Shown here: positions 1,672-20,775 of the stretch, piece after piece
Numbering within the stretch: position 1 is the first letter of the stretch
How the letters are laid out: every line of letters begins with the position of its first letter
Source: an uncultured delta proteobacterium
GTDB taxonomy: Bacteria > Desulfobacterota > Binatia > UTPRO1
Direction: 5' to 3'
Length of the DNA stretch: 64,000 nt
NCBI GenBank assembly: GCA_963753325.1
Contig: CAVWBS010000001.1
Span: 2,802,553 to 2,866,552, forward strand
Made by a program: the position numbers and the translations under genes
The notes under the pieces: model-generated
Databases searched by the model: none
What the model saw: the letters and a program-made list of their open reading frames with translations, nothing else
Told to the model about the DNA's origin: nothing

Positions 1672-2454
1672 ATGGTGCTCGTGCGCCTGGTGCAGGACCT
1701 CGGGTGGGCGGCGCTGTGCTTCGTCGATGACCTGGGGCGCCTCGCGATCTTCGCCGCACAGGTGCTGCGCGCGCTGCTCCGGCTGCCGGCACGCCGGCGG
1801 CTCCTCGTGCAGGCGGTCTTCGACGTCGGCGTGCTGTCGCTCATCATCATCTGCGTTTCCGGCATGGCCGTCGGCATGGTGCTGAGCCTGCAAGGCTACA
1901 ACACCCTCGTCCGCTTCGGCGCCGAGCAGTCGCTCGGGGCGGTCGTCGGCCTGAGCCTCATCCGCGAGCTCGGCCCCGTCCTGACCGCGCTGCTCGCCAC
2001 CGGTCGCGCCGGCTCGGCAACCGCGGCCGAGATCGGCACCATGGTCGCCACCGAGCAGCTCGACGGCCTGCGCATGATGGCCGTCGATCCGATCGAGTTC
2101 GTCGTCACGCCGAAAGCGGTCGCCATGACGTTCGCGATGCCGCTCCTCTCGGCATTGTTCATCACCTGCGGCCTGTTCGGCGGCTATCTCGTCGGCGTCG
2201 GCCTGATGGGCATCGACAGCGGCACCTACATGTCGAGCCTGCAGTCGGCCGTGGTCTTCCGCGATGACGTCCTCGGCAGTCTGTTGAAGGCCGTGGTGTT
2301 CGGCGGCCTCGTCGGGCTGATCGCGACGTTCCGCGGGTTCACGAGCGCGCCGACGTCGGCCGGCGTCAGCGCCGCCACGACCTCGACGGTCGTGGTGGCG
2401 TCGGTGTGCATCCTGCTGTTCGACTACGTCCTCACCGCGCTCTGGGGGGTGTGA
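1672..2454 (+). CDS. mlaE: MlaE lipid ABC transporter permease
   Basis: RELGPVLTALLATGRAGSATAAEIGTM..TEQLDGL..M.VDP and GVSAATTSTVV motifs. Confidence 0.95.
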   Translation: MVLVRLVQDLGWAALCFVDDLGRLAIFAAQVLRALLRLPARRRLLVQAVFDVGVLSLIIICVSGMAVGMVLSLQGYNTLVRFGAEQSLGAVVGLSLIRELGPVLTALLATGRAGSATAAEIGTMVATEQLDGLRMMAVDPIEFVVTPKAVAMTFAMPLLSALFITCGLFGGYLVGVGLMGIDSGTYMSSLQSAVVFRDDVLGSLLKAVVFGGLVGLIATFRGFTSAPTSAGVSAATTSTVVVASVCILLFDYVLTALWGV

Positions 2455-2455
2455 G

Positions 2456-2932
2456 ATGACGCGTTCACCGTTGCGGGACTTCATCGTCGGCTGCTTCGTG
2501 CTCGCCGGCCTCGGCGCCCTCGCCTACCTGTCGATCAGCGTCGGCGGCCTGTCCTATGCCGGACCGGGCGGCCTCACCCTCTATGCCACCTTCGACGAGA
2601 CGGGCGGCCTGAAGCCGCGCGCCCCGGTCGTCATCGCGGGGGTGAAGGTGGGCCAGGTCGACACCATCAACCTCGACAAGAACGCGCGGGCCCGCGTCCG
2701 TCTCGACATCGACAAGAGCCTGAAGATCCCGACCGACACGACCGCATCGATCGTCACCGCCGGCATCCTCGGCGACCGCTTCATCTCCCTGCAGCTCGGG
2801 GGCGAGGAGCAAGATCTCAAGCCGGGCGACGAGATCAGCTTCACCGAATCGGCAGTGCTTCTGGAGCGCCTGATCGGTAAGCTGATCCACAACAACGACG
2901 CCGGCCCGGCCGCGCCGTCCAGGGCCGAATAG
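2456..2932 (+). CDS. mlaD: MlaD MCE-domain protein
   Basis: N-terminal TM, F...GGLK..APV.IAGVKVGQV, TAGILGDRFISL, LERLIGK. Confidence 0.95.
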   Translation: MTRSPLRDFIVGCFVLAGLGALAYLSISVGGLSYAGPGGLTLYATFDETGGLKPRAPVVIAGVKVGQVDTINLDKNARARVRLDIDKSLKIPTDTTASIVTAGILGDRFISLQLGGEEQDLKPGDEISFTESAVLLERLIGKLIHNNDAGPAAPSRAE

Positions 2933-2949
2933 CCAGGAGAGGACGAACG

Positions 2950-3753
2950 ATGAGCTCGACTCGCATCCGTGCCGCCCTGTGTGTCGTCGCGTTGACGGTC
3001 GGCCTCGCCGCGTGCGGGCCGCCGGCGGCCCGGGGCCTGCACAACGAGGCGCGGACCGATTACGATCCCCTGCAGCCGCTCAATCGCAAGATCTTCTGGT
3101 TCAACGACCACGTCGACCAGTACCTGCTCGAGCCGGTGGCGCGCGGCTGGGACCGGATCGCACCGGACGTCGTCGAGCGGTCGGTGTCGAACTTCTTCGT
3201 GAACCTGCGCTCGCCGCTGGTCGTCCTGAACGACCTGCTGCAGGCGAAGCCCAAGGACGCCGCCTCCGACGTCGGTCGCTTCGCCGTCAACACCACGGTC
3301 GGGGTGGTCGGCTTCTTCGACTACGCGACACCGCTCGGTCTGCCGCAGCACGCCGAGGACTTCGGGCAGACGCTCGGGTGGTGGGGCCTGCCCGCGGGTC
3401 CGTACCTGATGCTGCCCCTCCTCGGACCGTCGAACGTCAGGGACACCATCGGGATCGCGGGCGACAGCGCCTCCGCGATCGCCCCCTGGTTCGTGAGCTG
3501 GTGGATGCTCGTCCCCCCCCGCATCGGCGAGGCTGTCAATGCTCGTGCGCTTCTGCTCCAGCAGGTCGAGGAGGCCAAACGCGCGTCCTTCGACTACTAT
3601 GTGTTCGTCCGCGACGCGTACCTGCAGCGACGGAACGCCCAGATGAACGATCGCGCGTCCGGCGGCAACGACGAGCAGGAAGACGAGCTGTACCATCCCG
3701 ACACCGGGCCGTCGCCCGGGGCCGCGCCCCCCTATGGAGGACCTCGATCGTGA
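2950..3753 (+). CDS. mlaA: VacJ/MlaA lipoprotein
   Basis: Lipobox LAAC, DPLQPLNRKIFWFN, RFAVNTTVG, EDFGQTLG, GPYLMLPLLGPSNVRD, Y.FVRDAYLQRR. Confidence 0.95.
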   Translation: MSSTRIRAALCVVALTVGLAACGPPAARGLHNEARTDYDPLQPLNRKIFWFNDHVDQYLLEPVARGWDRIAPDVVERSVSNFFVNLRSPLVVLNDLLQAKPKDAASDVGRFAVNTTVGVVGFFDYATPLGLPQHAEDFGQTLGWWGLPAGPYLMLPLLGPSNVRDTIGIAGDSASAIAPWFVSWWMLVPPRIGEAVNARALLLQQVEEAKRASFDYYVFVRDAYLQRRNAQMNDRASGGNDEQEDELYHPDTGPSPGAAPPYGGPRS

Positions 3754-4427
3754 AGCCACTGCGAACCGCCCTGCTGATGACGCTTCTGGCGAGCACGCTG
3801 CCCTGCGGCCTCACCCTCGGCAGCGACCCGCCCGTCGGCGACGGCAGCGGACCGCGCGCGACGGTACAGGCGACGACGAGCCAGGTGATCGCGGTGCTGG
3901 CGAACGGCAACCTCTCGACCGAGCAGAAGCGCCACAAGGTCGAGGATATCGTCTACGCGCAGGTCGACTTCGAGACGCTGTCGCGGCTCGTCCTGGCACG
4001 CAACTGGACCCAGCTCTCCGCCGAGCAGCAGCAGCAGTTCATGAGCGAGTTCCGCCAGAACCTGTCGGCGACATACGGCCGCAACGTCGAGACCTACAAG
4101 AACGAGAAGGTGCGGATCGTCGACGACCATGCCGAGCCGCGCGGCGACTGGACCGTCCGTACCAAGATCGTGCGCAACGGCGGCGACGACATCAACGTCG
4201 ACTACCGCCTGCGGCAGATCGATGGCACGTGGAAGATCATCGACATCATCATCGAGAACGTCAGCCTGGTCGCCAACTTCCGCTCGCAATTCCAGGAGAT
4301 CATGTCGAACGGCGGTGCGGCGCGGCTGCTGCAGGTGCTGCACGAGAAGAACGAGCGTGGCGAGCCGCTGAAGGCACCGGCGGCCGCCAGCAGCAAGCGC
4401 GCCTCGGGGTCGCCACGCACCTCCTGA
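3750..4427 (+). CDS. mlaC: MlaC/Ttg2D periplasmic phospholipid-binding protein
   Basis: GTG start overlapping the mlaA stop; VDFETLSRLVLARNW, VDYRL, WKIIDIIIENVSLVANFRSQF. Confidence 0.92.
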   Translation: MKPLRTALLMTLLASTLPCGLTLGSDPPVGDGSGPRATVQATTSQVIAVLANGNLSTEQKRHKVEDIVYAQVDFETLSRLVLARNWTQLSAEQQQQFMSEFRQNLSATYGRNVETYKNEKVRIVDDHAEPRGDWTVRTKIVRNGGDDINVDYRLRQIDGTWKIIDIIIENVSLVANFRSQFQEIMSNGGAARLLQVLHEKNERGEPLKAPAAASSKRASGSPRTS

Positions 4428-4446
4428 TCGCGGCGGGGGCTGCCGC

Positions 4447-5259
4447 TCAGGTCTGGCAGCGCGGGCAGTAGAAGGCGCTGCGCCCGACGATCACCTGACG
4501 GCGGATCGGCGTGGCGCAGCGTACGCACGGGGCGCCGGCGCGCTCGTAGACGCGAAAACGGTCCTGGAAGGCGCCCGGCTCGCCGCGCTCGTCGCGGTAG
4601 TCGGAGATCGACGAGCCGCGGGCCGCGAGCGCCGCATCGAGGATGGTGGCGGTCGCCGTCACGACCCGCGCCGCGGCCTCGCGCGACAGGCGTGAGGTTC
4701 GCCGCCCGGGACGGATTCCGGCCGCGAAGAGGATCTCGTTGGCGTAGATGTTGCCGATGCCGACGACGACGCGTTGATCCATGAGGAGGCTCTTCACCGC
4801 GCGCCGGCCCCGGCGCGCCGCGGCGTGCAGCATCCCGGTCGAGAAGGCCGGATCGAGCGGCTCGACGCCGAGCCCGGCGAGCTCGGCGAGCGCGTCCGGA
4901 TCACCGACCCGCATGAGGCCGAAGCGGCGCGGATCGTTGAAGTGGACGGTGCGCCCGTCGTCGAGCGTGACGACCACGTGGGTGTGCTTGCGGCGCGGGA
5001 CGTCGCCCGGCAGGACGACGAGGGTGCCGCTCATGCCGAAATGCACCAGCCAGATGCTCCCATCGTCGAGTGCGAGAAGCAGGTACTTGGCGCGGCGGCG
5101 CACCGCCTCGATCCGGCGCCCGGTCAACCGGCGCGCGAACGACGGTGCGAGCCGCCGGCGCAGCCGCCGCTCGTGCACGGTGACGGTCGTCACCGTGCAC
5201 CCCACGAGCGCGGCCGCAAGGCCGCGCCGGAGCGTCTCGACCTCCGGCAGCTCCGGCAT
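4447..5259 (-). CDS. mutM: Formamidopyrimidine-DNA glycosylase
   Basis: MPELPEVET N-terminus, HFGMSG, DPRRFG, GIGNIYANE, C-terminal CxxC..CxxC zinc finger. Confidence 0.97.
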   Translation of the reverse strand: MPELPEVETLRRGLAAALVGCTVTTVTVHERRLRRRLAPSFARRLTGRRIEAVRRRAKYLLLALDDGSIWLVHFGMSGTLVVLPGDVPRRKHTHVVVTLDDGRTVHFNDPRRFGLMRVGDPDALAELAGLGVEPLDPAFSTGMLHAAARRGRRAVKSLLMDQRVVVGIGNIYANEILFAAGIRPGRRTSRLSREAAARVVTATATILDAALAARGSSISDYRDERGEPGAFQDRFRVYERAGAPCVRCATPIRRQVIVGRSAFYCPRCQT

Positions 5260-5265
5260 GGGCGT

Positions 5266-6150
5266 TCAGCGCGGCCGTCGTGTCGCCGTGCCGCGCGCGG
5301 CATGTGCCCGCCCGACGGCGTCCGCCAGCGCGGCAAACGCCGTCAGATCGAGCGTCTCGCCGCGCACGCGGCCGTCGATGCCGGTCGCGGCGAAGACGTC
5401 GTCCCAGGCCCCGGTGTCGAGACGGAGAGCCGGCGGCAGGGTCTGCACCGCGTTCCGCAGCATCTTGCGCCGCTGGTTGAACGCGGCACGCACGAGGGCG
5501 CGGAGCAGTGCCGGATCGTCCACGGCGACGCGCGGCGCGCGGCTCAGGCGCACCCGGATGACCTCGGAGGTGACCTGCGGCCGCGGATAGAACGCCGACG
5601 CCGCCACGCGGAAGCGGCCGACGGGCTCGGCGTACAGCTGGAAGAGCAAGGACGGGGCGCCGTACGCGCGCGACCCCGGCCGCGCGAGCAGCCGGTCCGC
5701 CACCTCCCGCTGCACCATGACGGTGAGGTCGTCGAAGATCACGCGCTCGTCGAGGAAGCGAAACAGCATCGGGACCGCCGCGTAGTACGGCAGGCTGGCC
5801 ACGACCTTTGCCGTGCCCTCCGGCACCGCGGCACGCAGATCGATCTTCAACGCGTCACCCTCGATGATGCGTACGGCGGGCGTGTCCGCGAACTTGCGGC
5901 GCAGCACCACGCACAGGCCGCGATCGTACTCGACGACGTAGAGGCGTGCCGCCCGGGTCGCCAGGCCGTCGGTGAGGGCCCCGAGGCCGGGTCCGATCTC
6001 GACGACGGCCTCGCTCGGCCCGATCGCGGCGAGATCGAGCATGCGCGCGACGACCTTGCGGTCGACGAGGAAGTTCTGGCCGAGGTGCTTGCGGGGCGCG
6101 AGGCCCTCCTCGGCGAGCAGCGCGCGCGTCTCGGCGGAGAGCCCGGTCAT
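5266..6150 (-). CDS. rsmA: 16S rRNA m6,2A dimethyltransferase
   Basis: K.LGQNFL, VEIGPGLGALT, GDALK, SLPYY, MVQREVADRL, FYPRPQVTS, FNQRRKMLRN. ATG at 6150 overlaps the tsaD stop. Confidence 0.95.
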   Translation of the reverse strand: MTGLSAETRALLAEEGLAPRKHLGQNFLVDRKVVARMLDLAAIGPSEAVVEIGPGLGALTDGLATRAARLYVVEYDRGLCVVLRRKFADTPAVRIIEGDALKIDLRAAVPEGTAKVVASLPYYAAVPMLFRFLDERVIFDDLTVMVQREVADRLLARPGSRAYGAPSLLFQLYAEPVGRFRVAASAFYPRPQVTSEVIRVRLSRAPRVAVDDPALLRALVRAAFNQRRKMLRNAVQTLPPALRLDTGAWDDVFAATGIDGRVRGETLDLTAFAALADAVGRAHAARGTATRRPR

Positions 6151-13849: not shown

Positions 13850-14341
13850 TCAATGCGCGAAGATCGTCTTCAGCTCTTCCATGATCTTGTCCTCGGAGTG
13901 CGACTTCGCGATCGCCAGCTCCTTCACCAGCAGATTGCGCGCGGTGTCGAGCATCTTGCGCTCGCCGAACGACAGCTCCTTGTCGCCCTTCAGCACGAAC
14001 AGGTCGCGCAGGACCTTGGCGATCTCCAGGACCGATCCGGTCTTGATCTTCTCGGTGTACTCCCGGTAGCGGCGGTTCCAGGTCTGCTGGTCGATCTCGA
14101 CCTTCTTGTCGCGCAGGATCTTGTAGACTTTCGCGACCATGTCGCGGCCGATGATGCGACGCAGCCCGACGCTACCGACGTTTTCGGTCGGGATCATGAT
14201 CGTCATGTCGCTGTCGAGAATACGCAACATGTAGAATTTCTTGGCCGTGCCGGAGATCGTCTTGCTCTGGATGCTTTCGATGACTCCGACGCCGTGGGCT
14301 GGATACACGACTTTCTCGCCCACTTTGAACACATCCGACAT
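13850..14341 (-). CDS. carD: CarD/CdnL RNA polymerase-binding regulator
   Basis: FKVGEKVVYPAHGVG, TWNRRYRE, LSFGERKMLD.A..LL..EL. GGAGG RBS; conserved linkage to ispD. Confidence 0.95.
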   Translation of the reverse strand: MSDVFKVGEKVVYPAHGVGVIESIQSKTISGTAKKFYMLRILDSDMTIMIPTENVGSVGLRRIIGRDMVAKVYKILRDKKVEIDQQTWNRRYREYTEKIKTGSVLEIAKVLRDLFVLKGDKELSFGERKMLDTARNLLVKELAIAKSHSEDKIMEELKTIFAH

Positions 14342-14405
14342 GCATATCCTCCAATTTATGAAACAGACGTTAGCGCGTGTAGAATAGCGGAAAAACGAGG
14401 GATCG

Positions 14406-15338
14406 TCAATTTCCGGGCGGGGCATCGAGTGTGCCGATCCAGGCATTCACGTCGTCGATCCCCCGTGCCGTGAGCGCCGCCGCGATCTCCCCCGCGATGC
14501 GCGCCGTGGCGCGGGGATCGACGAACGTCGCCGTCCCGACCTGCACGGCGCGCGCGCCGACGAGCAGGAACTCGAGCGCGTCGTCGCCGCTCGCGATGCC
14601 GCCGATGCCGATCACCGGGATGGCGACCGCGCGCACGGTATCATGCACCATCCGCAGCGCGACCGGCTTGATCGCCGGCCCCGAAAGGCCGCCGGTCCGG
14701 TTGGCGAGCAGCGGCCGGCGGCGCTCGAGGTCGATGGCCATGCCGACGAGCGTGTTGATGAGACACACGGCATCGGCGCCCTCTTCCTCGGCGATGCGGG
14801 CGAACACGGTCACGTCGGTCACGTTCGGCGACAGCTTCACCCAGAGCGGCCGCCGGCACGTCCGGCGTGCCGCCCGCACGACCTCGCGCGTCATGTCGGG
14901 ATCGGTCGCGATGATGCGTCCCCACTCGCGCTTGTTGGGACTCGAGATGTTCAGCTCGACGGCGGCGATGCCCTCGGCATCCGACAGCGCGGCCGCGACG
15001 TCGGCGAATTCCTCGGGGACGTTGCCCCAGCAGTTGGCCACGATCGCCGTACCGCTCGTCCGCAGCGTCGGAAGCTTGGAATCGATGAACGCGCGCACGC
15101 CGATGTTCTGCAGGCCGATCGCGTTCATCATCCCGGCCGCGGTCTCCACGAGGCGCGGCGCGGGATGCCCCCGGCTGGGCTCGAGGGAGAGGCCCTTCAC
15201 GACCAACGCACCGATCGCGGCGAGCTCGGTGACGCCGGCGAATTCGAGCCCATAGCCGAACGTGCCGGAGGCGGCGATGACGGGATTCTGCAGCGTCAGG
15301 CCGCCGCCGACCTCGACGCGCAGCCGCGGTGGCGCCGT
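14406..15338 (-). CDS. pyrD: Dihydroorotate dehydrogenase (class 1B) catalytic subunit; start codon unclear
   Basis: In-frame NPVIAASGTFGYG upstream of the ORF-track start; NAIGLQN, ELNISSPN, VKLSPNVTD, GGLSGPAIKP. No ATG/GTG/TTG before the conserved N-terminus. Confidence 0.9.
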   Translation of the reverse strand, partial: TAPPRLRVEVGGGLTLQNPVIAASGTFGYGLEFAGVTELAAIGALVVKGLSLEPSRGHPAPRLVETAAGMMNAIGLQNIGVRAFIDSKLPTLRTSGTAIVANCWGNVPEEFADVAAALSDAEGIAAVELNISSPNKREWGRIIATDPDMTREVVRAARRTCRRPLWVKLSPNVTDVTVFARIAEEEGADAVCLINTLVGMAIDLERRRPLLANRTGGLSGPAIKPVALRMVHDTVRAVAIPVIGIGGIASGDDALEFLLVGARAVQVGTATFVDPRATARIAGEIAAALTARGIDDVNAWIGTLDAPPGN

Positions 15339-15339
15339 A

Positions 15340-15867
15340 TCAGCCCCGCCGCAGGGAGAGCCGCATGATCAACGCGTCCTCCCCACGCCCGTAGTAGTTG
15401 CGGCGCACCCCGACCTCCTCGAACCCGAAGGCGAGATAGAGGCGGTGTGCGCGGCGGTTGCTGCGTCGCACCTCCAGGGTCACGGCTTCGGCCCGGACGT
15501 CGCGCGCCTCGCGCACGATCTCGTCCAGCAGGACGGTGCCGAGGCCGACCCGGCGATACTGCGGGTGCACCGCGACGTTCAGCACGTGGATCTCGTCGGC
15601 GACGAACCAGCGGCAGGCGTAGCCGACGATCGGCTCATCGACCGCGCCCGTCGGGCGCGCGATCACGACGCGGGAGAACGGGATGCGCAGCTCCTGCAGG
15701 AACAGCGCGCTCGTCCACGGATTGTCGAACGAGCACCGCTCGATCTCGAGGACCTGCCGCAAATCCTGCGGACGCATGTCCGAGAACGTCCACCCGCCCG
15801 CTCGTCCCTGCGCTGCGCTGGAGATCGCCACGATCGTCCTCGTCGACTCCGTCCGTCCGACGGCCAC
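15340..15867 (-). CDS. rimI: Ribosomal protein S18 alanine N-acetyltransferase (true start may be later)
   Basis: IE..SF.NPW, EIHVLNVAVHP, LEVRRSN..A..LY..FGF..VG.RRNYY...EDALIM. Confidence 0.9.
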   Translation of the reverse strand: MAVGRTESTRTIVAISSAAQGRAGGWTFSDMRPQDLRQVLEIERCSFDNPWTSALFLQELRIPFSRVVIARPTGAVDEPIVGYACRWFVADEIHVLNVAVHPQYRRVGLGTVLLDEIVREARDVRAEAVTLEVRRSNRRAHRLYLAFGFEEVGVRRNYYGRGEDALIMRLSLRRG

Positions 15868-15894: not shown

Positions 15895-17274
15895 CTAGCG
15901 TACCAGGACGACCTCGAGGGTCTTGTCGCGATAGCGGTGGCGGAAGCCCCGCACCGGTCGCGCCAGCGCTATCCGCGTCGTGAAATCGGGCGGAAACGAG
16001 GGCGCGCCCGAGGCGATCTTCCGTACCTGCGGATCCCCGAGCTTGCCGTGGACGACGAACGAACCGTTGTTGAGGGCGAGCTCGTAGTCGTAGTCGGGCA
16101 TCTCGTCCGGCACGCCGAGCTCCTCCTTCATCGACGTCGGCGGCACGCGCTGCGGGAACTCGAGCCGCAGGAAGTAGCCGTTGCCGACCTCCTCGAGCCT
16201 GTAGACCTCCCCGTAGCGGCGTTGGCGGTCGCGCTTCTCGTCGAACTGCCCATCGTAGAAGCCGTCGAAGGCGATCGTGCCGCTCTCGCGCGTGTGCGAG
16301 GTGCGCGCGAACGGCACCGCCAGCGGCATCAGGAATGGGCCGTAGAACGCGGGGCCGAGCCGCATCTCGTCCGTGGGCAGGCCCGCGAAGAGCCCGTCGC
16401 GCAGCCGCCACGCGGTCTCGATGACCGCGATCGCGACGCCCCAGAAGATCAGGCTGTCGAAGCGCAGGCTGAAGACCTGCCGGCCGAGCACCACCGCACC
16501 GAAGGCGCCGAAGAGGATCGGGTAGAGAAAGAAGTCGAGCATCACGTTCAAGGCCGTGGCGCCGGCTGCGCTGAAGATCGCGCGATCGCCTGCCGCGTCC
16601 TCGAGCCGCCGCTTGGTGGCGTCGGGCAGCGCGCCGAAGACCGGCAGGAGCAGCGGTGCGACGAGCCGCGCGAGCAAACCGGACCCGCCGCTGCGCGCGC
16701 GACGCAGACGGTCGACCAGGTCGTCGAAGTCGTCGGGCAGCTCGCCGGGGAAGCGTTTCTCGACCTTGGGACCTTTCGCGGCCGGCGGTGCCTTGACCGC
16801 CTTCTCGACGCGTCCGCCCGGTCGTGCGGCGGCGCGCGCGGCGGGCGCGGGCGCAGCCGCGGGTGCCGCGGCCGCCGGCACCGCGGCGGCTGCCGGCGCC
16901 GCGGCGGCTGCCGGCGCCGCCGGCGCAGCCTCACCAGCGCCGTCCTTACGGAAACGTGACGGGAAATCGGGGCCGAAGGTCGTTTCCGGGTGCAGCTGCT
17001 TGGCACGCTCCAGAAGGACGCCCTCGGTCTCGGGGATCTTCGGGTCGGGAACGCAGCAGTCGACCGGACACACGGCGGCACAGGCCTCGTGATCGAAGAA
17101 ACCGACGCACTCGGTGCATTTCTCCGGAACGATGTAGAAGATGTCGTTCGAGATCGGCGGATGGGTCGTGCCGTTCAGCTCCCACTCGACGCCGCCCTGG
17201 TAGATGGCGGTGTTCGGGCACTCGGGCTCGCACGCTCCGCAGTTGATGCACTCGCTGGTGATCACCGTCGCCAT
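15895..17274 (-). CDS. YfhL-type 2x[4Fe-4S] ferredoxin fused to an Ala/Pro linker, a membrane domain and an Hsp20-like C-terminal domain
   Basis: CINCGACEPECP and CTECVG.....C..VCPVDCC; 3-4 hydrophobic segments; C-terminal beta-sandwich pattern. Confidence 0.8.
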   Translation of the reverse strand: MATVITSECINCGACEPECPNTAIYQGGVEWELNGTTHPPISNDIFYIVPEKCTECVGFFDHEACAAVCPVDCCVPDPKIPETEGVLLERAKQLHPETTFGPDFPSRFRKDGAGEAAPAAPAAAAAPAAAAVPAAAAPAAAPAPAARAAARPGGRVEKAVKAPPAAKGPKVEKRFPGELPDDFDDLVDRLRRARSGGSGLLARLVAPLLLPVFGALPDATKRRLEDAAGDRAIFSAAGATALNVMLDFFLYPILFGAFGAVVLGRQVFSLRFDSLIFWGVAIAVIETAWRLRDGLFAGLPTDEMRLGPAFYGPFLMPLAVPFARTSHTRESGTIAFDGFYDGQFDEKRDRQRRYGEVYRLEEVGNGYFLRLEFPQRVPPTSMKEELGVPDEMPDYDYELALNNGSFVVHGKLGDPQVRKIASGAPSFPPDFTTRIALARPVRGFRHRYRDKTLEVVLVR

Positions 17275-17494
17275 GCACTTCTGTCCTTTCTGCTCACGAG
17301 AGGGATGGCGCCTGCCGGAAAGCGGAACGCGATCACACGTTCCGGGCCGGTATCTTGCTTCGATCCGGTTGACCTGTCAACGAAATCGCCGCGTCGAGCA
17401 GGAGCGCGAGCCGAGCGGAAATTGGCGGTGCGCCCCGCGATGTGCTATTCGCCACGCGGCGTTTCCAGGGGGGGTGGCGGTGGGCGGCAGGTGG

Positions 17495-18580
17495 ATGGCA
17501 CGAGCGAGCGCGGTAGCGATGCTGGCGTTCCTCATCGCTGCGCGGCCCGCACATGCCGGTCACGCGTTGGTCGACGCGCTCGACGGGACGACCCTCGAGG
17601 CGACCGAGCCTGGTGCCGTGGTGGCGGCGGACCGCGCCCTCGATCTACTGCTCGTCGAGGTGGTTCGCGAGCGCATCGCGGCGGGGACGCTCCGCTTCAC
17701 GAGCATCGTCCCCATGACCGTCGTCGGCGCCGACGCCGCCGCAGCGCACGCGGCGCACGGTCGGCTCTCGGTCGGCGAGCTGCTGCAGCTGGTGCTGCTG
17801 AATCGCTCCCGGAGCGCGGTCGCAAGCCTCGCGCAGGCAGTCGGCCCCGGCGTGGACCAGGCGCGCGTGCGCCTGCGGCGCGCGGCCGCCCGCCTCGAGC
17901 TGCGCGACACGACCGTTCCCGAGCGCTGGCCCGCCGAGGCCTCCGCCCCCCCCGCTCGTACGACGATCGGCGATCTGGCGCGCCTTGCGGGGGCGCTCGT
18001 CCACGACGGCGAGCTCCGGCGCCGGCTGACGCTCGACGGCGCGCCGATCGCCGACGGCGCGCTCATCGTCCGCGCCACCGATCCGCTCATCGCTTGCGAT
18101 CTTCCCGCCGACGCGCTCCATCCGCCGGCCGCGTCGCGCCAGGGATCCGTTGCCGTCGATCCGCCCGCGGCGCTCGCCGTGAAGGCGCGCGACGGGCTGG
18201 AGCTGCTCGCCGTCGCCGCCGGCGGCGACGCGTCTGCCGCGGTCTGGCGCGCGCTCGACGAGGGATTCACGCGCTATCGCCGGATCGAGCTGGTGCACGC
18301 CGGCGCCTCCGTCGGCGCCGAGATCGAGATGAAGGGCGGGACGATCGGCCGCTTCACCGCCGTCGCCGCGCAGACGTTCGCGCTTACGGTTCCGCGGCAC
18401 GGGCCGTTCTCGCTGAGCGCGTGGTTGCAGCTCCCGGCACCGGGCGAGGCGCCCGGCGAGGCGCGTCACGGCGTCGGCGAGCTGGTGTTCGCGCAGGGCG
18501 GCCGGATCGTCGGCGCGGTACCGCTGGTCGCGCCGGCGGCGATCGCCCCGAACGGTTGGATCGACACCGCCCGACGCTGA
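17495..18580 (+). CDS. D-alanyl-D-alanine carboxypeptidase-like (peptidase S11 + PBP5_C) protein lacking catalytic motifs
   Basis: Signal peptide, ALVDA.DG..L, LSVGELLQ..L, TT..DLARLA, C-terminal PBP5_C-like GELVF....IVGAVPLVA. SxxK, SxN and KTG not present. Confidence 0.65.
   Translation: MARASAVAMLAFLIAARPAHAGHALVDALDGTTLEATEPGAVVAADRALDLLLVEVVRERIAAGTLRFTSIVPMTVVGADAAAAHAAHGRLSVGELLQLVLLNRSRSAVASLAQAVGPGVDQARVRLRRAAARLELRDTTVPERWPAEASAPPARTTIGDLARLAGALVHDGELRRRLTLDGAPIADGALIVRATDPLIACDLPADALHPPAASRQGSVAVDPPAALAVKARDGLELLAVAAGGDASAAVWRALDEGFTRYRRIELVHAGASVGAEIEMKGGTIGRFTAVAAQTFALTVPRHGPFSLSAWLQLPAPGEAPGEARHGVGELVFAQGGRIVGAVPLVAPAAIAPNGWIDTARR

Positions 18581-19005: not shown

Positions 19006-20775
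<1,770 letters not shown>

Follow-up and report, generated by a model that had tools for sequence, protein, structure and literature searches.

Within a 64,000-nucleotide (nt) stretch of DNA from an uncultured delta proteobacterium (GCA_963753325.1, contig CAVWBS010000001.1, positions 2,802,553 to 2,866,552; the whole stretch is called the window below), we analyzed a minus-strand gene at 15895..17274 that comprises 459 codons plus a stop. Its 459-aa open reading frame (ORF) runs through four parts, namely a ferredoxin (residues 1-110), an Ala/Pro-rich linker that we treat as a tether, a hydrophobic membrane module, and a C-terminal domain (~343-459, hereafter C-domain) that resembles the alpha-crystallin domain (ACD) of small heat-shock proteins (sHSPs). 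A first-pass annotation of the sequence had listed exactly this ORF and had named no described protein of this architecture; our searches of the open-access literature agree, as they found no publication describing it. The components are of known kinds, and it is their combination for which we found no published description. Public records name the homologs merely "ferredoxin" or "4Fe-4S dicluster domain-containing protein".

The fusion is a genuine conserved gene and not an artefact. A word-indexed protein search with the full query returned 2612 proteins at E ≤ 1e-3 among 8000 scored, and the 120 matches listed each reached at least 549 bits, mostly with 100% query coverage and with identities of 53-88%. 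Alignment of 27 sequences revealed a family conserved end to end (mean column identity 62%), with the ferredoxin head at 87%, the ACD-like domain at 75% and the membrane module at 60%. We then read 29 loci as DNA, of which one was the window, 20 came from same-class genomes and 8 were named loci, and one uninterrupted ORF of 341-552 codons was present in 29 of 29, such that the concern that orthologues might be two separate genes, joined here by a missed stop, was not borne out. With a profile of the C-domain alone (A3, 30 sequences), 46 of the 61 genomes sampled from the class showed a single copy (43 of the 53 high-quality ones), and for 42 of these 46 the match fell in an open frame of 415 aa or longer. 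None of the 78 sampled genomes from other classes of the same phylum had a match. A few full-length loci are filed under other, unverified metagenome-assembled genome labels (Verrucomicrobiia, Thermodesulfobacteriota, Acidoferrales).

Residues 1-110 (16945..17274, minus strand) form an Alvin/YfhL-type 2[4Fe-4S] ferredoxin head, as identified from Pfam, NCBIfam and solved relatives. The eight cysteine ligands (C9/C12/C15/C19 and C53/C56/C65/C69) were invariant in the 27 sequences, and the second cluster motif reads CxxCx8CxxxCP (C53-x2-C56-x8-C65-x3-C69-P70). Alvin/YfhL-type ferredoxins are recognized by a second motif spaced CxxCx6-8CxxxCP together with a C-terminal helical extension, and their reduction potentials are very low and well separated (split). 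The modeled head has its C-terminal helix at residues 84-94, and the alignment to 1blu and 2zvs extends through it. Residues 3-95 aligned to structures of this type at E values of 3e-17 to 7e-12, the closest solved relatives being 1blu (3.2e-17), 2fgo, 2zvs (YfhL, 7.8e-14) and 1rgv. In a Pfam search, Fer4-type models were the only matches, at residues 3-73 (Fer4_7, E 4.7e-7). The NCBIfam YfhL model NF033683 gave 84.8 bits over residues 1-93, only 1.2 bits short of its cut-off of 86 bits, a near miss that is most simply explained by a 15-residue insertion, relative to 1blu, after the first cluster motif (residues ~29-43). Given the eight cysteines, the NF033683 score and the 1blu match, the earlier description of a complete YfhL-type dicluster ferredoxin of about 110 aa stands. 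The head shares the eight cysteines, the second motif and the C-terminal helix with 1blu, 2fgo, 2zvs and 1rgv, whereas those are standalone proteins of ~80 aa and here, in addition to the insertion, the chain continues for 350 residues through the tether, the membrane module and the ACD-like domain. The head is also strongly acidic, with a mean net charge of -11.6 across the family alignment.

The C-domain begins with a helix that carries the family signature E-R-x-R-R-Y-G (residues 343-356, 16207..16248, minus strand; from the model and conservation), and this leads into a predicted, divergent alpha-crystallin-type beta-sandwich (residues 357-459, 15898..16206, minus strand; from the model, Foldseek, VIA-align and hhalign). 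Folded alone by AlphaFold2 (AF2) with a 96-row alignment, residues 335-459 reached a predicted local distance difference test score (pLDDT) of 90.6 and a predicted template modeling score (pTM) of 0.80, with a helix at 343-353 and seven strands (358-363, 366-372, 395-402, 405-412, 430-436, 443-449 and 452-458), along with a short helix at 415-423 between strands 4 and 5. Foldseek searches of the PDB with this model returned, as the best-scoring listed matches, exclusively ACDs of sHSPs (best E 1.2e-4, TM-score ~0.5, root-mean-square deviation (rmsd) 4-7 Å), and CS domains first appeared at rank 22. VIA-align, which is independent of Foldseek, likewise placed sHSPs at ranks 1-13 (Z 8.2-7.2, rmsd 2.4-3.3 over 77-85 residues; for example 4rzk, rmsd 2.4 over 77 residues), with CS/p23 domains just under them (2xcm, 6mv2, 9q8o, 6gxz and 4pck; Z 7.1-6.3), and a second, whole-protein model built from a different alignment again put sHSPs at ranks 1-12 (Z 7.1-6.5). 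Comparing profile A3 by hhalign with an alignment of 19 genuine sHSPs from this genome and its relatives (A4) gave 96.1% probability (E 3.5e-9, 93 columns), whereas none of 30 column-shuffled copies of A4 exceeded 0.5% and a reversed alignment scored 0.9%. The motif E-F-P-R fell on E-L-P-G of the sHSPs, F-x-x-R-I on F-x-R, and L-E-V on G-V-L. In the ESM Atlas, the leads for the C-domain were all below 0.9 (a Binatota hypothetical cluster, with Hsp20-named clusters at 0.86). From these alignments and models we accept the C-domain as a remote homolog of the ACD that has the same predicted fold, a match well past what chance would give. The first-pass annotation had proposed an Hsp20-type fold from the spacing of four C-terminal motifs, and both parts of that proposal held, as hhalign puts those motifs on strands b3, b4/b5, b7 and b9, and the domain models as an alpha-crystallin sandwich for which the structure searches lead with sHSPs.

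The seven-strand sandwich and this remote homology are what the C-domain has in common with sHSPs (PF00011; 4rzk, 5j7n, 5ds1, 4fei, 1gme), which are ATP-independent holdases that assemble as dimers or polydisperse oligomers, but it departs from them in several respects. Pfam returned no family for residues 335-459 or 201-459, even at E ≤ 10, and PF00011 matched only 1 of 30 family members (E 0.015), while a six-frame PF00011 search of the genome recovered 5 ordinary HSP20 matches elsewhere and missed the present gene. Searching PDB sequences with A3 (hmmsearch) likewise produced no match at E ≤ 10. The C-terminal extension, whose I/V-x-I/V motif bridges sHSP dimers into oligomers, was absent from 27 of 27 members, which stop 1-5 residues past the last strand (..LEVVLVR, ..LLKR), unlike genuine sHSPs of the same and related genomes, which end in ..PRQIxVKAA tails. 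In the model, helix 415-423 lies between b5 and b7 in place of the beta6 swap loop, through which sHSPs of the bacterial, plant and archaeal type form strand-swapped dimers, and the hhalign alignment has a gap of 2 columns there. Between b3 and b4 the family has a specific 16-residue insertion (residues 380-395, 16090..16137, minus strand), evident as an hhalign gap and bearing a conserved P-D-E-M-P-D-Y (M392, P393, Y395). The position of the N-terminal region of sHSPs is taken by the membrane module, and the domain has a signature of its own (ER-x-RRYG, MPDY, SFPxxF). Positions conserved in at least 80% of the 96 rows were E349, R350, R352, R353, Y354 and G355 before the sandwich, the last five at 93-100%, and E372, P374, P378, M392, P393, Y395, R418, F427, P428, F431, R447 and L453 within it. 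The full signature of the ~120-aa domain, E-R-x-R-R-Y-G ... E-[FL]-P-x-x-x-P ... M-P-x-Y ... F-P-x-x-F, is present in this protein. A homodimer prediction for two C-domain copies with alignment A2 scored 0.09 against a mark of 0.42, which is evidence in neither direction. Because it falls below the Pfam HSP20 model and lacks both the I-x-I tail and (in the model) the beta6 loop, we do not file the domain as an sHSP. Alignments A2 and A3 could provide a new family model for the C-terminal 260 residues, which Pfam does not cover.

To see what the C-domain is joined to elsewhere, residues 201-459 were searched exhaustively against 1.84 billion cluster representatives, which yielded 150 representatives at E ≤ 1e-3, 98 of them at E ≤ 1e-10. 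Pfam scans of 53 of the 150 detected Fer4-type domains in 23, another domain in 1 and none recognizable in 29, and the single representative with unrelated domains was a partial match of 52 residues. Architectures read from 14 representative sequences included a 7Fe FdxA-type head with the same transmembrane (TM) module and ACD (P0153), a single-cluster Fer4_13 head with TM module and ACD (P0191, P0208), Fer4_13 or FdxA-type heads joined to the ACD without TM segments (P0193, P0221, P0228, P0250, P0268), and an ACD followed by a polyferredoxin (P0204, P0230). A further group lacked a ferredoxin (P0122, P0128, P0151, P0154), perhaps in part because of truncated gene calls. By these domain assignments the C-domain is an unannotated family that is fused to at least three predicted ferredoxin types besides YfhL, with or without the membrane module, and the ACD-like domain is combined repeatedly with differing ferredoxins and with no other recurrent partner. 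Ferredoxins of several unrelated types being the sole partner that recurs, an accessory role specific to ferredoxins is favored over one in general proteostasis.

Between head and C-domain lie the tether and the membrane module. The tether (residues 111-172, 16759..16944, minus strand), delimited by the alignment and by pLDDT below 50 in the full model, is of low complexity, and among the 27 homologs it is 63% Ala plus Pro, 50-95 aa long, and variable in both length and sequence, in keeping with the long Ala/Pro linker noted before. It is followed by an F-P-G-E-L-x-x-x-F motif and a helix at 183-193 (residues 173-197, 16684..16758, minus strand; from conservation and the AF2 model), in which F175, G177, E178, L179 and F183 were invariant or nearly so in the 27 sequences; the motif is kept in ferredoxin-less and TM-less relatives. 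The membrane module (residues 198-325, 16300..16683, minus strand), defined by hydropathy and by pLDDT of 80-92 over 236-300, consists of a proline-rich hydrophobic segment at 198-217 (conserved P-x-L-G-A-L-P), two hairpin helices and a hydrophobic segment at 305-325. Helix 1 of the hairpin (residues 236-261, 16492..16569, minus strand) is predicted by both AF2 and hydropathy, and helix 2 (residues 270-290, 16405..16467, minus strand) is less hydrophobic and contains E286 and R290, both invariant. Four stretches are hydrophobic (~197-218, 236-263, 266-290 and 305-326), and in the family-average hydropathy on the Kyte-Doolittle (KD) scale 242-263 alone is TM-grade (KD 1.86), with 266-290 at ~1.1 and the outer two as shoulders. 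The 3-4 hydrophobic helices first proposed for this region therefore stand as four hydrophobic stretches but not as helices, of which the full-length AF2 model has just two of membrane length (236-261 and 270-290, pLDDT 80-92), and a hairpin with two interfacial segments is the better description. The structural match of residues 236-294 to Vma21p, a protein with a two-TM hairpin (Z 5.2, rmsd 1.9, 56 aligned), is a likeness of generic geometry only. In a VIA search with the full-length model the membrane module matched nothing but such a generic two-helix hairpin, and in the ESM Atlas residues 173-334 had no usable match.

The counts of Lys and Arg (3.8 before helix 1, 0.9 in the short connecting loop and 2.3 after helix 2) fit a predicted N-in/C-in arrangement, and a hairpin anchor with both ends cytoplasmic is the best reading of the predicted topology. 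A cytoplasmic location of the ACD-like domain is also suggested by the TM-less relatives, because these hold ferredoxin and ACD in one soluble chain without a signal sequence.

The same head occurs in this genome on a second, different tail. A paralog (L107; 1009..1866, minus strand, on contig 3 of genome G000) has a head 91% identical over 110 residues, followed by an A/P linker and then a CxxC..CxxC zinc-ribbon-like module with a helical tail, with no TM segment or ACD, and the YfhL model is its sole match in NCBIfam. Like the present gene, these zinc-ribbon-like-tail paralogs combine head and A/P linker, but their tail lacks both the hydrophobic module and the ACD. Among 80 genome loci this form accounted for 6, the TM-ACD form for 9, and standalone proteins of 95-118 aa for most of the remainder. 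The expectation that YfhL-type ferredoxins are normally standalone holds only with a qualification, as in this lineage the head is also found on a second, different kind of tail. That a single genome carries this head on two distinct tails suggests an address or docking function for the tails.

Members of the zinc-ribbon-like-tail family (L107, L004, L005, L007, L014, L015, L067) total 265-285 aa, and their tail of ~100 aa has a "WE[IV]P..C..C...C..C" motif, a helical end and no hydrophobic module (maximum KD < 1.3). The literature searched yielded no description of this form. The genome also holds a third YfhL-like ferredoxin copy (G000:C1:1001897-1002228; L108/L109) with 61-65% identity, which is split over two frames carrying residues 1-26 and 28-110; a frameshift, decay to a pseudogene or faulty assembly may explain the split.

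Bringing these observations together, our favored reading, to which we assign a probability of roughly 45%, is that of a swinging-arm ferredoxin anchored in the membrane, with the ACD-like tail serving for docking or assembly. The product would be a ferredoxin of predicted low potential, held at the membrane by a hairpin that inserts from the cytoplasmic side, such that head and tail would both face the cytoplasm. The A/P spacer would let the acidic head swing across tens of angstroms and so connect a donor with acceptors on or close to the membrane, in a manner that may be likened to the arms of lipoyl or TonB-type linkers. The tail, with its conserved Arg cluster and MPDY insertion, would bind a partner or self-assemble and in this way fix the head's site of action. 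It would not be a polydisperse sHSP holdase, and its role would be analogous to that of the CS/ACD-fold domains in CYB5R4/Ncb5or and Get3d. The head would then be a generic carrier and the tails would differ in what they address, because the paralog head that is 91% identical bears another tail and because the head is the most constrained part of the family (87%).

CS/p23 domains are compact seven-strand sandwiches of the HSP20-like superfold that lack the oligomerization elements of sHSPs. In CYB5R4/Ncb5or (6mv2; matched here at Z 6.8, rmsd 2.2, 76 aligned), a CS/p23 sandwich of the same superfold stands beside electron-transfer domains, and PMC9706631 describes its CS domain as the link between the b5 and b5R redox domains and CS domains generally as common mediators of protein-protein interactions, a role also given to them in PMC13434041. 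The likeness is an analogy only, as CYB5R4/Ncb5or is eukaryotic, uses heme and flavin, has its CS domain between the redox domains, and has no tether or membrane anchor. Get3d (All4481 and AtGet3d; 3igf, 8elf), which was among the structural matches (3igf at Z 6.1; 8elf at Z 5.0 with the second model), shares with the present protein an ACD that is added to a functional domain of an unrelated kind. According to PMC10248533, the Get3d alpha-crystallin domain keeps the fold with low sequence similarity to sHSPs, is without the beta6 loop, and forms no ACD dimers or oligomers. Get3d differs in that its partner is a Get3/ArsA ATPase, in being soluble, and in occurring in cyanobacteria and plants, and the likeness is structural.

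Several of our own results weigh against the swinging-arm reading. No ferredoxin was evident in those 29 of 53 C-domain representatives, and P0128, P0151 and P0154 begin with M and have no ferredoxin, so the domain may also act unfused. The structural scores are middling, with a Z of 8.2 lying, per the tool, within the range for models without true matches, so that the fold assignment draws its strength from hhalign and from the several methods agreeing. In the full-length model pTM is 0.41 and the ferredoxin head is poorly predicted (pLDDT ~40), which makes it uninformative on inter-domain contacts. With a single clearly TM-grade segment in the family average, the protein may instead have one span or an odd number of spans, which would put the ACD-like domain outside the cell. 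Lastly, the conserved neighbors of the gene are housekeeping genes (rimI, carD, ispD and a cysK-like gene) and not redox enzymes.

Weighing other explanations against the same data, we considered that the Arg cluster of the ACD-like domain might bind its own or a neighboring acidic head in order to shield the oxygen-labile clusters, hold the apo-form until it is re-metallated, or gate electron transfer. This is unlikely on balance, but it would account for ferredoxin, of at least four kinds, being the only recurrent fusion partner, and for the pairing of a head of net charge -11.6 with conserved arginines (R350, R352, R353, R418 and R447, all kept in 83% or more of the 96 rows), and both ACD and CS folds are peptide- or protein-binding modules (PMC10248533, PMC9706631). 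Its difficulty is that a 50-95-residue spacer and a membrane hairpin look made to separate head and tail, that the fused ferredoxin classes differ structurally such that a single binding mode is not obvious, and that ferredoxin-less members seem to exist; the full-length model had no confident head-tail contact, which given its poor head tells us nothing either way. The first-pass annotation had instead put forward a redox-coupled membrane chaperone or sensor. As a chaperone, the protein would be an ACD-like holdase for membrane or membrane-proximal clients, switched by the state of the Fe-S clusters (reduced, oxidized or lost), and we consider this rather improbable. In its favor, the domain shares remote ancestry and the same sandwich with the ACDs of sHSPs, hydrophobic segments flank it as hydrophobic N-terminal regions flank the ACDs of sHSPs, and a divergent groEL lies ~0-1.8 kb upstream in 7 of 29 loci. 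However, the I/V-x-I/V tail and (in the model) the beta6 loop, elements that build sHSP oligomers, are missing, the family scores below Pfam HSP20 (PF00011) in a genome that already has five ordinary HSP20 matches, and a general chaperone role does not predict selective joining to ferredoxin classes, soluble ones included. The gene also sits in a housekeeping operon with rimI, and no CIRCE element occurs in the 64,000-nt window, although this last point is weak evidence as other heat-shock controls were untried. The chaperone proposal is thus far unsupported.

An odd-numbered or single-span topology would leave the ferredoxin in the cytoplasm and the ACD-like domain in the periplasm, coupling the two compartments as an anchor or as a sensor of envelope state. 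Consistent with this, 242-263 is the sole TM-grade segment, the second helix reaches only ~1.1 and contains the invariant charged residues E286 and R290, and AMIN domains (AmiC, PilQ), which are similar sandwiches, are among the lower structural matches (Z 6.3). We give it little credence, as soluble signal-less relatives carry ferredoxin and ACD together and hence in the cytoplasm, AF2 predicts a tightly packed two-helix hairpin (pLDDT 80-92), the Arg-rich E-R-x-R-R-Y-G before the ACD would disfavor translocation under the positive-inside rule, and the AMIN-type matches rank under 13 sHSP and several CS ones. Fe-S clusters are common sensory cofactors, and a cofactor-bearing head combined with a membrane segment and an interaction domain could make a sensor of redox or Fe-S status whose output would pass via the membrane module or via a change of partners at the ACD. 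This we regard as the least probable of the explanations considered here, given that the 53 representatives had no output domain (kinase, DNA-binding, cyclase) save a weak partial match in a response-regulator protein (P0239), that no regulator gene is conserved alongside in the 29 loci, and that a head 91% identical to that of a differently tailed paralog looks like a carrier rather than a tuned sensor.

Soluble ferredoxins are regarded as freely diffusing carriers. If the swinging-arm reading is correct, a near-core gene would tether a ferredoxin of very low potential and thereby allow spatial channeling of low-potential electrons in an abundant uncultured soil and sediment lineage (probably Binatia). 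A broader proposal, which we hold as tentative and rather doubtful, is that the ACD-like domain represents a new, ferredoxin-dedicated branch of the alpha-crystallin superfamily that would dock or assemble ferredoxins, and that the protein is a membrane platform of one or more low-potential heads on Ala/Pro arms, a tethered hub for electron distribution on the cytoplasmic side of the membrane and of a kind not yet described. Such a membrane-bound ferredoxin hub would, if real, be an undescribed way to organize ferredoxin-dependent metabolism. To our knowledge almost all described proteins with the alpha-crystallin fold are chaperones or co-chaperones, and a branch selectively fused to four kinds of ferredoxin would widen its known uses. 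The ACD-like domain could itself serve as bait for partners.

Turning to the genomic neighborhood, the gene 27 nt downstream of the fusion gene stop, on the same strand, is rimI (15340..15867, minus strand), encoding ribosomal protein S18-alanine N-acetyltransferase (TIGR01575, 116.1 bits against a cut-off of 86.4). It directly follows the fusion gene (-22 to +95 nt) in 15 of the 29 loci and comes after a pair of FabH and FabH-like genes in 7 more, and is a conserved operon neighbor. In those 7 of 29 loci (L121, L123, L124, L127, L128, L129 and L003; for example L124 at 4057..5995, minus strand), the pair between the fusion gene and rimI consists of a FabH gene scoring 366 bits on TIGR00747 and a diverged FabH-like gene whose 166 bits miss the cut-off, and it often overlaps the fusion stop. 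Farther downstream, carD was found in 19 loci, ispD in 15 and a cysK-like gene in 15, and the downstream synteny has at least three variants, including one in which a ~1100-aa AddB-like nuclease gene after rimI replaces carD-ispD (L113 at 2205..5477, minus strand; L114, L117 and L001).

Three candidate partners were rejected, namely pyrD, which lies between rimI and carD in just 6 of 29 loci, hpnH, which is ~1.84 Mb from the gene in this genome, and groEL, which is divergent from the gene in those 7 of 29 loci only, with the window lacking a CIRCE element. Upstream of the fusion gene no sigma-70-like site was flagged, and by eye we spotted there a TTGACA at 17380-17375 with a poor -10 after 18 nt. 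The window's groEL (19009..20775, plus strand) has no adjacent groES, and its listed ORF start is probably too early, as a promoter-like site at 19070-19097 lies inside the ORF and the GroEL-like N-terminus starts near residue 46. Divergent from the ferredoxin gene lies an ORF (17204..18580, plus strand) whose one match, to PBP5_C, is weak (22.4 bits, where the cut-off is 21.2), and its true start is probably near 17494, where a signal-peptide-like "MARASAVAMLAFLIAARPAHA" is encoded. "PBP5like" tblastn matches at 6071 (minus strand) were dismissed as an artefact, the listed start at 17204 overlapping the ferredoxin gene in antisense. Between rimI and carD the window contains a class-1 dihydroorotate dehydrogenase gene (14406..15206, minus strand), whose listed TTG start is probably too late, as its Pfam match begins at profile position 41. 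The CdnL-type carD (13850..14446, minus strand) has a G+C content of 0.58, against 0.70-0.75 around it.

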